Below are positions 14,026 to 16,962 of a stretch of DNA of 29,216 bases, one piece after another. A program made the translations under genes and the position numbers. Source of the stretch: an uncultured Lachnospiraceae bacterium. Its GTDB lineage: Bacteria; Bacillota; Clostridia; Lachnospirales; Lachnospiraceae. Numbering within the stretch: position 1 is the stretch's first letter; each line of letters opens with the position of its first letter. Location of the stretch: contig CAMOQY010000001.1 in assembly GCA_946623295.1 (NCBI GenBank), positions 1 through 29,216 on the forward strand, given 5' to 3'. A model generated the notes under the pieces. That model did no database searches and was not told the origin of the DNA. It was given only the letters and a program-made list of their open reading frames with translations.

Positions 14026-14804
14026 TGGAATGGCTCGAATCGATCGACTTCAGAAGAGTGATCGCGGTACTCATAGTGATCGCGGTTTTTGTCGCGCTCT
14101 GGATCCTGCTCCGCATGCTTTTTCACAGGTGGATAAAAGCAGAGCAGAAAAGCGGGTCAAAGCGGGGCATCGCTTCGGTCCTCTGGGATACCGTAAAGCT
14201 TTTGCTGGTGATCCTCGGGATCATCGTTCTCCTTGAGGTAAACGGCATCGACGTTACCTCGGCCATAGCAGGACTGGGGATAGCCAGTGCTGTCGTCGGT
14301 CTCGCTCTCCAGGATATCCTGAAGGATATCATAATGGGCGTGCATATCGCCATGGACGGCTTTTTCAAGGTGGGAGATTATATCTATTATCAGGGCGAGC
14401 TGTGCCGTGTGAAGGATTTTAATCTGCGCACCACAAAGCTTGAAAATATTACAAAGCCGGGCAGCTTTACTCTCTGCAACCGTCTGATCGAGTCGGTGGA
14501 GAGGGCTTCGGAGTTTGTGCAGCTGGATATTCCGGTGTCTTACTCCGTGCCGCAGAAGCTTGTCGATGAGACGCTGCGCAGAGCCTGCGCCCGCGCGGAG
14601 AGGATCGAGGGCGTAACCAGGATGGATTATACTGGTCTGGACAAGCTGGGCGACTCCGCGATGATATATGTAATCATGCTCTACTGCAACCAGGAAAGAC
14701 GCTACTATATCACCCGTGAGGTCATGAGCGTGATCAAAAACGAGATGGACAGCGCGCAGGTGACGGTACCGTTCAACCAGGTCGATGTTCATCTTGACAA
14801 GTGA
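14022..14804 (+). CDS. mscS: Small-conductance mechanosensitive channel family protein
   Basis: AGLGIASAVVGLALQDILKDIIMG, FKVGDYI, LRTTKL motifs; ATGA overlap with the upstream gene. Confidence 0.88.
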   Translation: MMEWLESIDFRRVIAVLIVIAVFVALWILLRMLFHRWIKAEQKSGSKRGIASVLWDTVKLLLVILGIIVLLEVNGIDVTSAIAGLGIASAVVGLALQDILKDIIMGVHIAMDGFFKVGDYIYYQGELCRVKDFNLRTTKLENITKPGSFTLCNRLIESVERASEFVQLDIPVSYSVPQKLVDETLRRACARAERIEGVTRMDYTGLDKLGDSAMIYVIMLYCNQERRYYITREVMSVIKNEMDSAQVTVPFNQVDVHLDK

Positions 14805-14809
14805 AGCAT

Positions 14810-16201
14810 ATGATCAGGATACTGAGAGGAAAATATACAGGTTTCGACTATGATGCCCGCGGAATAACGGGCTCTTTTTATCCCGGCCGGGAGATAGTAT
14901 TTGAGGACGGGACCGACGGCGAGATCGTAATAGATCTGGATCGCGTGCTTGCGGGCGAGCCCTGCGGAAAAAATGAGCTGAGAAAGCGCCTTTACAGGTA
15001 TCTTGAGCGAGAGAGCGGCAGGACTCTGCCGTGGGGCGTGCTGACCGGAGTGCGCCCGACAAAGCTTACCATGGCCGCGCTCAGGAGCGGCATGAGCAGA
15101 AGCGAAGCTGAGAGGCTGATGAGGGAAGAGTATCTTGTCAGCGCCGAAAAGGCTGCGCTTGCTGCGGGGATCTCGGAAAGGGAACTGCGCGTGCTGGGAG
15201 AGCTCGAGTCCGGATCGGACGGCCCGGGCTACAGCCTGTATGTGGGGATCCCTTTTTGCCCGACGCGGTGTTTGTACTGTTCTTTTACATCATACCCCAT
15301 AGCCGGATGGGCGCACAGAGTTGATGCGTATCTGGACGCGGTCCTGAAGGAGCTTGACTGGACCGCCGCGCGTTTTGCCGGACGTCCCTGCCACAGTGTT
15401 TATATCGGCGGCGGAACGCCTACCTCGCTGGGTCCCGCGGAGCTGGACCGTCTTCTTTCCGCGATCCGCGGGAAAATAGACTTTACGGCTGTCAGGGAGT
15501 TTACGGTGGAGGCCGGGAGGCCGGACAGTATCCCCCGCGAAAAGCTGGAGGTGCTTAAAAAGCACGGGGTCAGCCGCATCTCGATCAATCCCCAGACGAT
15601 GAACGACAGTACGCTGCGTCTTATCGGGCGCAGCCACAGCAGCGCGGAGATCACGGAAAAGTTCCTTCTGGCCAGGGAGCTTGGTTTTGATAATATCAAT
15701 ATGGATATCATCCTGGGACTTCCGGGAGAGATGGCGGAGGATACGGCGCGGACTATGGAGGCGCTTTCCCGCCTGCGCCCCGACAGTCTGACGGTCCACG
15801 CTCTCGCGGTAAAACGTGCTTCGCGCCTTAAGATGGAGTCTGCGGGCGCTGTCATGCCCGGCTATTCCGATGAGGAGTCTGTCAGGATGATGCGTATTGC
15901 TTCGGACGGCGCGCAGGCAATGGGTCTTTTGCCGTACTACCTCTACCGCCAGAAAAATATGGCTGGCAGCCTGGAAAATGTCGGATTTGCCGCGCCCGGA
16001 CGGGAAGGCATCTACAATATCGTGATCATAGAGGAGACGGAGTCTATAGTGGCGCTCGGTGCGGGCACAGTAACGAAGAATGTCGATAACGGTCCGAGAA
16101 ATATTACCCGCTGCGACTGCGCCAAGGAAGTTGAGGACTATATTGCGCGCATAGATGAGATGATCAGCAGGAAAGAGGCGCTTTTTTCTAAGCTGAGCTG
16201 A
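14810..16201 (+). CDS. hemZ: HemZ, coproporphyrinogen III oxidase-like radical SAM protein
   Basis: LPWGVLTGVRPTK, YVGIPFCPTRCLYCSF (CxxxCxxC), YIGGGTPT, EAGRPDSI, PYYLYRQKN; start ATG 14810 or GTG 14801. Confidence 0.93.
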   Translation: MIRILRGKYTGFDYDARGITGSFYPGREIVFEDGTDGEIVIDLDRVLAGEPCGKNELRKRLYRYLERESGRTLPWGVLTGVRPTKLTMAALRSGMSRSEAERLMREEYLVSAEKAALAAGISERELRVLGELESGSDGPGYSLYVGIPFCPTRCLYCSFTSYPIAGWAHRVDAYLDAVLKELDWTAARFAGRPCHSVYIGGGTPTSLGPAELDRLLSAIRGKIDFTAVREFTVEAGRPDSIPREKLEVLKKHGVSRISINPQTMNDSTLRLIGRSHSSAEITEKFLLARELGFDNINMDIILGLPGEMAEDTARTMEALSRLRPDSLTVHALAVKRASRLKMESAGAVMPGYSDEESVRMMRIASDGAQAMGLLPYYLYRQKNMAGSLENVGFAAPGREGIYNIVIIEETESIVALGAGTVTKNVDNGPRNITRCDCAKEVEDYIARIDEMISRKEALFSKLS

Positions 16202-16422
16202 CCGCCGCGCCTTGGCCGGGCCGCCGCTGATATGCTTTTTTCTCACGTGAGACACACCGCTCGGACGGTCATACGCTAACAAAAAACAGGATAGATCTTT
16301 TGCTCCCGCACGCTTGCGTCCGCAAAATCTATCCTGTTTTTTCTAACCGTATATCCGCCTTCGCTGGTCTCAATGCTCGAAAAAAGCATACCAGCGGCGG
16401 CCCGGCAAAGGCGCGGCGGTCA
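16199..16422. repeat. 224-bp imperfect palindrome (inverted duplication of a ~105-bp unit); MITE/BIME-like
   Basis: Outer arms 16199-16242 and 16379-16422 match 42/44; inner arms 16281-16296 and 16327-16342 match 16/16; both ends start at the TGA of the flanking genes. Confidence 0.9.
16281..16342. terminator. Bidirectional terminator-like core of the palindrome
   Basis: AAAAAACAGGATAGAT...ATCTATCCTGTTTTTT between convergent hemZ and pyrR. Confidence 0.7.
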
Positions 16423-16962
16423 CTCGGTCTCGTGAAGCTCGACGCAGGTCTCATCCTCGTAGGGCGGGATCTTGACGGAGATAAGCTCGTTGCGGGAGGT
16501 AGGAACGTTTTTTCCTACGTAGTCGCCGCGGATCGGGAGCTCGCGGTGTCCGCGGTCCACGAGCACTGCCAGCTGCACGGATCCGGCCCGTCCAAAGGAC
16601 TTGAGCGCATCCAGCGCGGCAGAGGCGGTACGTCCGGTATAGAGCACGTCGTCAACAAGCACGACGGCGCGGTCGTCGATGGGAAATCCCAGCTCTGTGT
16701 GATGGACGATAGGATTGACTGAATCTTTTTCCAGATCATCCCGGTAAAACGTGATATCGAGCTCGCCGACCGGAACCCTTGTACCCTCGATCGACTCGAT
16801 GTTTTCAGCGATGATGCGCGCCAGCGGCAGTCCGCGGCGCCGGATGCCGACAATGCATATATCGTCTGCGCCGTTGTTGTGCTCCACTATCTCGTGCGAG
16901 ATACGTTTGAGCGCTCTTTTGACCGCAGTTTCGTCCATTATGGTGGTCTTGTATCTGTACAT
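16420..16962 (-). CDS. pyrR: Pyrimidine attenuation regulator/uracil phosphoribosyltransferase
   Basis: KRISHEIVE, GIRRRG, LDITFYRDDL, VVLVDDVLYTGRT, DRGHRELPIRGDYVGKNVPTS; CAGGAG SD. Confidence 0.97.
   Translation of the reverse strand: MYRYKTTIMDETAVKRALKRISHEIVEHNNGADDICIVGIRRRGLPLARIIAENIESIEGTRVPVGELDITFYRDDLEKDSVNPIVHHTELGFPIDDRAVVLVDDVLYTGRTASAALDALKSFGRAGSVQLAVLVDRGHRELPIRGDYVGKNVPTSRNELISVKIPPYEDETCVELHETE

Follow-up and report, generated by a model that had tools for sequence, protein, structure and literature searches.

The pneumococcal repeat SPRITE, a terminator-like element strongly enriched between convergent genes (PMC3049150, 2011; reviewed in PMC3184786), is by analogy of form the closest described counterpart of the element that we report here. 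The latter is a 224-bp palindrome between the convergent genes hemZ and pyrR, found in a 29,216-nt stretch of DNA from an uncultured Lachnospiraceae bacterium (contig CAMOQY010000001.1 of assembly GCA_946623295.1; the whole stretch is hereafter called the window). SPRITE and the family to which this palindrome belongs are both small interspersed repeats of Firmicutes, in which a U-rich tract comes after a long duplex and the ends are formed by an A run and a T run. Both favour the space between convergent genes, near 3' ends, and have low copy numbers (30 for SPRITE); no target duplication or matching insertion sequence (IS) is known for either, and neither extends beyond one species and its closest relatives. 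However, the two share no sequence similarity. The present family has a higher GC content and is longer, its rod measuring 150-260 bp, it has a conserved asymmetric apex hairpin and copy-specific arms, it is present in only 5-7 copies per genome, and one of its subfamilies (that of genome G405, see below) lacks terminator-type tracts at the central stem.

Our favoured interpretation, held with moderate confidence, is that the palindrome is one copy of an intergenic repeat family, restricted to one lineage and low in copy number, whose members are rod-like (foldback), carry a terminator-like hairpin, have arms that grew by mirror copying, and have been inherited mostly by vertical descent. The repeat family is previously undescribed, and a literature search found no prior description of it in Lachnospiraceae; the kind of element is already known.

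Two other classes of elements resemble the family in part. MITEs (miniature inverted-repeat transposable elements), such as Correia/CREE, ERIC/IRU, RUP and BOX (PMC3184786), are likewise dispersed, non-coding, palindromic and intergenic, are co-transcribed with their neighbours, and can supply terminators. MITEs have conserved terminal inverted repeats that match a parent IS, together with target duplications, whereas here conserved ends are found only in the G405 subfamily, and most copies are old and shared between species as orthologues. The present family is of MITE size and is dispersed as MITEs are, with 5, 6 and 7 copies in the three carrier genomes, a copy number that is low for a MITE. 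Repetitive extragenic palindromes (REPs) and bacterial interspersed mosaic elements (BIMEs) are also extragenic imperfect palindromes with a bias towards convergent gene pairs, no target duplication and a strand-specific bulged hairpin. However, REPs are 20-40 nt long, are present in hundreds of copies and come with a gene for a REP-associated tyrosine transposase (RAYT, a Y1 HUH enzyme), and the present unit is five to ten times longer. Finally, quasipalindrome template switching turns imperfect palindromes into perfect ones; it also inverts loops, lengthens stems and yields "compensatory" changes in a single step (Monttinen and Loytynoja 2022, PMC8794818). It is a mutational process rather than an element family, and its action here is deduced from end states. 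It would fit three features described below: arms that are near-perfect yet specific to the copy, a core that is inverted, and a gene tail that is mirrored.

The hemZ/pyrR palindrome and its copies

The palindrome in the window is real and non-random. Its outer arms form an inverted repeat of 44 nt (I1) that is 95% complementary, with two mismatches and 136 nt between the arms; the outermost triplets are the TGA stop codons of hemZ (16199-16201, plus strand) and of pyrR (16420-16422, minus strand), as stated in the original prediction, which had been made from the letters of the window. That prediction also placed the limit of the symmetry at the next base outward. This holds in strict register, where C16198 faces C16423, but with one base bulged six further pairs form between 16192-16197 and 16423-16428, four of them Watson-Crick and two G-T. 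The perfect 16-bp inverted repeat (16281-16296 with 16327-16342) and the small CGCA-CGCT-TGCG hairpin (16307-16318) that had been noticed inside the spacer were both located, the former as part of a second inverted repeat of 34 nt (16266-16299 with 16324-16357, 82%). Folding of the 242 nt around the spacer gave, again as anticipated, one single rod, with -150.4 kcal/mol (z -17.9) on the plus strand and -163.3 kcal/mol (z -16.2) on the minus strand; none of 200 shuffled sequences folded as well as the real one on either strand. A 15-codon open reading frame (ORF) within this copy is not retained by the other copies.

The source genome of the window (G000) is a 74%-complete metagenome-assembled genome (MAG) whose 199 contigs total 1.45 Mb. 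In this genome a plain DNA search returned one further copy, and a more sensitive blastn search found four copies more than that of the window, giving five in all: C1 (the window copy), C10, C59, C121 and C30. Using a covariance model (R1) built from an alignment of copies (A2), the five reached 99-146 bits on one strand, as against only about 30-38 bits on its complement, and thus the element has a polarity and is not made of two equal halves. For this reason we rejected the proposal that it is a head-to-head pair of a ~105-bp repeat: the two halves are unequal in the window copy (126 against 33 bits), and no isolated half was found in the blastn and R1 searches. One partial piece was seen, a mirror copy of one arm beside the C59 copy.

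R1 also detected six copies in the sister species "Lachnospiraceae bacterium RGIG3470" (a goat-rumen MAG, 95% complete; G406, also G401 in our set). In a third carrier species of the same genus (G405, 93% complete) there were four weaker R1 matches, and a DNA search gave seven copies. These make up a sister subfamily, about 235 bp long and with conserved GC-rich ends, and have 77-86% identity to the copy used as the query. One diverged copy is located on L018, a metagenome contig of a relative whose genes are 66-75% identical to those of G000. Across the family, copies are about 150-260 bp long and total at least 18 in three genomes, including independent assemblies. The description of the palindrome as an uncatalogued dispersed repeat is thus borne out, with copies in G000 and in two sister species and without a match in Rfam: nothing relevant was found in 15900-16800 at E up to 10, nor anything for three other copies at E up to 0.1, and a known RNA family was rejected on these grounds.

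The range of the family is narrow. The R1 search found no copy in five other species of the genus or in 93 other genera, and the apex pattern was absent from 400 genera of the family Lachnospiraceae. An origin from a plasmid, a phage or a virus was rejected, since the G000 element had no plasmid or phage match and the apex pattern had no match in viral contigs. The carriers are the species closest to G000 by TyrS identity (91% and 85% for the other two carriers, 83% or less for the rest), so that the distribution fits descent within one subclade. Three of the five G000 copies (C10, C59 and C30) are found at the same sites in RGIG3470, and inheritance therefore appears largely vertical; the permease gene that flanks C59 also flanks one of the G405 copies. 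We propose that the family would have descended mostly vertically in one subclade of a genus of rumen Lachnospiraceae, with occasional gain, loss and inversion.

The DNA identity between G000 and RGIG3470 varied by locus: about 76-80% at hemZ/pyrR, a mosaic of 85-100% around C59, 92% at C10 and 97-98% at C30. This unevenness suggests either recombination between the lineages or the co-binning of contigs from different strains. At another G000 site, C101:~1500-1800, a gene whose beginning resembles ParA/Soj has upstream of it four tandem repeats of ~57 bp and, after these, a 16-bp parS site that is perfect; the region probably lies near the origin. L018, which is syntenic with the C101 region, carries there instead its copy of the main family.

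Terminator shape, apex and arms

Each copy combines a conserved, strand-asymmetric core, holding a 24-nt apex hairpin, with a long central stem that is specific to the copy and with outer arms that are near-perfect inverted repeats inside the copy and barely alike across copies. The positions of these parts in the window are given in Table 1.

The central hairpin of the window copy has a predicted energy of -28.7 kcal/mol on the plus strand and -33.6 kcal/mol on the minus strand, and is followed by U6 on either strand. In 9 of the 11 copies of G000 and RGIG3470, A and T runs of 5-7 nt bracket both sides of the stem (the RGIG3470 copies C42 and C40 are degenerate), and these copies should therefore act as bidirectional intrinsic terminators for their convergent neighbours. 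For hemZ and pyrR, the modelled fold indicates that the window element probably terminates transcription from both sides. The majority of the copies in these two genomes lie between convergent ORFs, although they are too few for statistics. Three convergent pairs of housekeeping genes, unrelated to one another, were confirmed with Pfam (HemZ/PyrR, acyl-ACP thioesterase/MscL and IMPDH/ABC permease), and other flanking genes code for a LacI-type regulator, a Band-7 protein and AckA (the latter identified by its C-terminal sequence, not by Pfam). Downstream of ackA, RGIG3470 has a copy of the element, whereas G000 has an ordinary hairpin of A run, stem and T run without the apex; an ordinary terminator of the same build is also found at the G000 counterpart of another RGIG3470 copy.

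A different feature is common to the whole family. The five G000 copies have a common centre of 22-24 nt, and the apex pattern had four matches in the forward orientation in this genome and none reversed. In an alignment of 19 copies (A3) the 24-nt apex is nearly invariant: above a short lower stem, an internal loop has TCC on its 5' side and a T-rich triplet on its 3' side (TCC in the window copy), the 4-bp stem occurs in four compensatory versions (C-G in 12 copies and G-C in 7 at one pair, G-C in 9 and A-U in 9 at another), and the CGCT loop deviates in only 3 of the 19. Between-copy conservation in the apex zone was 0.79-0.85, with a symmetry of 0.45. In the central stem and outer arms, within-copy symmetry was 0.82 and 0.75, and the between-copy score of 0.60-0.68 was the lowest of all zones, figures that have no unrelated-sequence baseline behind them. 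The junction blocks between stem and arms contain conserved, non-mirrored motifs and bulges: the left block is not a mirror image of the right, within-copy symmetry in this zone reaches only 0.65-0.71, and the right block is homologous to that of the G405 subfamily. The arms of different copies have faint motifs in common, which suggests that they are part of the element.

The apex is thus the family-wide conserved part; strongly conserved and asymmetric, it is what our explanation leaves over, and it could be a protein recognition site. An integron attC site, a parS site, a sigma-54 promoter and a cre-box were rejected as identities for the apex or for the mini-palindrome of the left junction block, by eye against consensus sequences, because spacing or key bases did not fit. 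The other sites with the apex motif in G405 and RGIG3470 were all coding-like or belonged to one of two repeat families, the second of which is described below, and no parent element was found among them.

Table 1. Features of the hemZ/pyrR locus, by position in the window.
Feature	Position	Strand	Description
hemZ (coproporphyrinogen dehydrogenase HemZ)	14801-16201	+	TIGR03994, 549.7 bits (cut-off 321); also Pfam
Left outer arm	16199-16242		GC-rich, ends with T6 run (16236-16241); first triplet is the hemZ stop; repeat I1
Left junction block	16241-16280	+	12-nt perfect mini-palindrome (16241-16252); family-conserved GCTCGGA (16259-16265); alignments A1-A3
Conserved core (extent of R1 match)	16244-16386	+	126.1 bits, E 8.7e-33; only 33 bits on the minus strand
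Central hairpin	16281-16342		16-bp perfect stem with the apex, between an A6 and a T6 run; shaped like an intrinsic terminator on either strand
Apex	16301-16324	+	3-bp stem, TCC x TCC internal loop, 4-bp stem (16307-16310 / 16315-16318), CGCT loop (16311-16314)
Right junction block	16343-16378	+	conserved TTCGC (16360-16364) and GTCTCA..GCTCG (16367-16379); alignments A2 and A3
Right outer arm	16379-16422		A6 run (16380-16385); last triplet is the pyrR stop, minus strand; repeat I1
pyrR (pyr operon regulator / uracil phosphoribosyltransferase)	16420-16962	-	NF003549, 238.8 bits (cut-off 138)

Proposed mirror copying and the end of hemZ

A comparison with relatives was informative on the ends of the palindrome. 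In RGIG3470, hemZ and pyrR are adjacent and convergent, with 45 nt between their stops and no element, and the pyrR stop is at the same position as in G000. The PyrR tail ..EAE is common to RGIG3470 and to the comparison genome G403, and therefore looks ancestral. The HemZ tails differ: ...LFSKLS* in G000, ...LFAR* in RGIG3470 and ...LFKEI* in G269, a comparison genome of the same genus. In G000, the last three codons of hemZ and its stop (16190-16201) lie within or beside the palindrome, and the TIGR03994 profile ends at residue 461 of the 466 of HemZ, five residues ahead of the stop. Moreover, when the 8 nt that lie past the pyrR stop of RGIG3470 are reverse-complemented, they match 16190-16197 of the window exactly, the stretch immediately ahead of the bulged C and the stop of hemZ; at a fixed place, with few offsets allowed, such a match has a chance of about 1e-4, in a test that is post hoc.

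Thus, the element has probably rewritten the last codons of hemZ. We propose that template switching, or conversion from arm to arm, would take place at the hairpin and copy one arm onto the other, and that the palindrome would extend outward until coding sequence halts its growth; this would be the simplest account of the self-complementary stems and arms. The arms would by now have reached both flanking genes and entered one of them. At this locus, the stop and last codons on the pyrR side would have been mirrored onto the hemZ side, giving the present ...KLS* end of HemZ. That both ends of the palindrome are stop codons would then be explained by one end being the mirror copy of the other gene's stop. 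The original prediction had the element capturing both gene termini: for hemZ, the end does appear to be element-made, but the pyrR stop is native, as the element-free locus of RGIG3470 indicates.

The order of the genes is itself of limited range. In G269, tyrS directly follows hemZ (contig L024:2020-2035) and pyrR is elsewhere on the contig; in G403 and in a further comparison genome, G407, pyrR has other neighbours. The convergent hemZ/pyrR order is therefore specific to the lineage of G000 and RGIG3470. We also considered that the arms could be a pre-existing spacer into which the core was inserted, and rejected this option, the empty RGIG3470 spacer not being significantly similar to the arms.

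Two other loci bear on the dynamics of the arms. At the thioesterase/mscL locus (C10 in G000, C36 in RGIG3470) the flanks are collinear and 92% identical, and the 152-nt cores are 96.7% identical but in opposite orientation, with the breakpoints inside the arms. The arms turn over at this locus: those of ~27 nt beside the core cannot be aligned between the two species, yet they are complementary within each. At C59, positions 372-441 of the G000 contig are a 70-nt indel with respect to RGIG3470, with a 7-nt direct repeat at its bounds, and what it contains reproduces the far arm of the element in inverted form, with 57 of 75 aligned columns matching. Since the last codons of hemZ mirror the pyrR tail of RGIG3470, we infer that the arms grew by inverted duplication, and all these patterns would fit quasipalindrome template switching, for which a model has reportedly been put forward by Ripley. 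Template switching can both create and maintain hairpins (PMC8794818).

Alternative explanations and a second repeat family

Several points weigh against the interpretation that we favour. Termination is deduced from the shape of the hairpin alone, and the G405 copies and the L018 copy have no A or T runs at the central stem, so that the feature conserved across the family is the apex and not the terminator shape. The argument for mirror copying at hemZ is post hoc and needs three later transitions in the pyrR tail of G000. The empty RGIG3470 locus is only 76-80% identical, too diverged to define the boundaries of the element or to tell gain from loss, and the alignment of its spacer with the arms was not significant (p 0.26-0.68). 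The indel beside C59 could equally be a slippage deletion in RGIG3470 as a template-switch insertion in G000. As for a putative mobility, copy number is low, no consistent target duplication was found at the seven G405 copies or at C1, the G405 element used as a DNA query found only the seven short copies in that genome, and no larger carrier of its ends or of the apex motif turned up; a missing parent IS is weak evidence, because IS elements are often missing from MAGs. PF01797 (Y1/RAYT), the sole transposase family searched, was absent from G000, G405 and RGIG3470 and present only in two non-carrier species. A REP/RAYT system was rejected on this basis and because the unit is far longer and rarer. 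Of the suggestion that the palindrome is a non-autonomous transposable element, the dispersal is supported, while transposition is not: target duplication, RAYT and larger carrier were not found, and three of the five copies are orthologous.

A second dispersed palindromic repeat, of ~115-130 nt, was found in the same three genomes as the main family, with 11 matches in G000, 8 in RGIG3470 and 4 in G405. Sites in G000 include C13:540-680, C191:2615-2744, C165:166-276, C174:2240-2354, C109:5432-5527, C131:4361-4456, C77:845-950, C73:4215-4325, C70:5441-5523 and C36:2667-2758. It was found in none of the five other species of the genus and had no Rfam match. The second repeat and the apex of the main family have a motif of 11-15 nt in common (11-nt core), and beside three of the seven G405 copies of the main family the second repeat lies ~35-45 nt to the right. 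The repeated flank of the G405 copies is this second family; tRNA genes were considered there, and none was found beside the copies. As a speculative and rather improbable extension, the apex hairpin might be the site at which a protein recognises single-stranded DNA or RNA in folded form. This protein would be either an enzyme for mobilisation, not related to RAYT/IS200, or a host factor marking a set of 3' ends, and both repeat families might be substrates of one undescribed system.

Instead of selfish or neutral DNA, the family could also be a structured nucleic-acid motif with a function, maintained by selection at a few loci, in which the apex and the junction bulges would form a binding site for a host factor, as 3' untranslated RNA or as folded single-stranded DNA. 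The near invariance of the apex across otherwise diverged subfamilies, its four compensatory stem variants and the presence of its 11-nt core in a second repeat family whose phyletic range is the same would all agree with selection, as would the retention of three of five copies at orthologous sites and the contrast at C10 and RGIG3470 C36 between a 96.7% identical core, 92% identical coding flanks and arms that cannot be aligned. However, the flanking genes have nothing in common, the core is found in either orientation between the same genes, and there is no match in Rfam. In addition, the stem mismatches have no wobble signature (G-U type: 50 on one strand and 41 on the opposite strand; transversion type: 227), and covariation in DNA palindromes can arise without selection at the RNA level (PMC8794818); lacking an RNA-type wobble bias, covariation alone is no argument for an RNA gene. 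We regard such a motif as unlikely.

Long inverted repeats around an asymmetric core, together with an orthologous copy that is inverted between two species, are also what an inverton would show, with the 44-nt arms as recombination sites and a core that flips to alter the expression of its neighbours. We find this very unlikely. The inversion is single and was seen only across species-level divergence, an independent metagenome contig being oriented as in G000; the element and its surroundings gave no promoter-like site, and the element is downstream of both genes, so that a promoter there would be antisense; and no recombinase gene lies beside any copy. Recombination between long inverted repeats, or template switching, can flip such a segment without a dedicated enzyme. 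It is even less credible, to the point of near exclusion, that the palindrome is an elaborate bidirectional terminator specific to this locus and without relatives, or a fold-back assembly artefact, the two outcomes that the original prediction had named as fatal to it. The convergent genes and the terminator-like hairpin would suit the former, and a fragmented MAG of 199 contigs the latter. But the related copies contradict a lone terminator, and an artefact is unlikely because the arms are mismatched at two positions around an asymmetric interior, the flanks run into normal genes within a 29-kb contig, and related copies are present in independent assemblies.

Few terminator-like interspersed repeats are on record, and the lineage-restricted family of terminator-like foldback repeats that we favour would be a further case, from a rumen lineage that is uncultured; its hemZ/pyrR copy would provide a worked example of how a palindrome can rewrite the C-terminus of a gene. 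Lying among housekeeping genes, the element has no relevance to harm or virulence. The covariance model and the apex pattern mark such loci for annotation, and warn that even close relatives may differ in the orientation of the core. Only one feature, the conserved asymmetric apex, may lead to something new, namely a binding protein.

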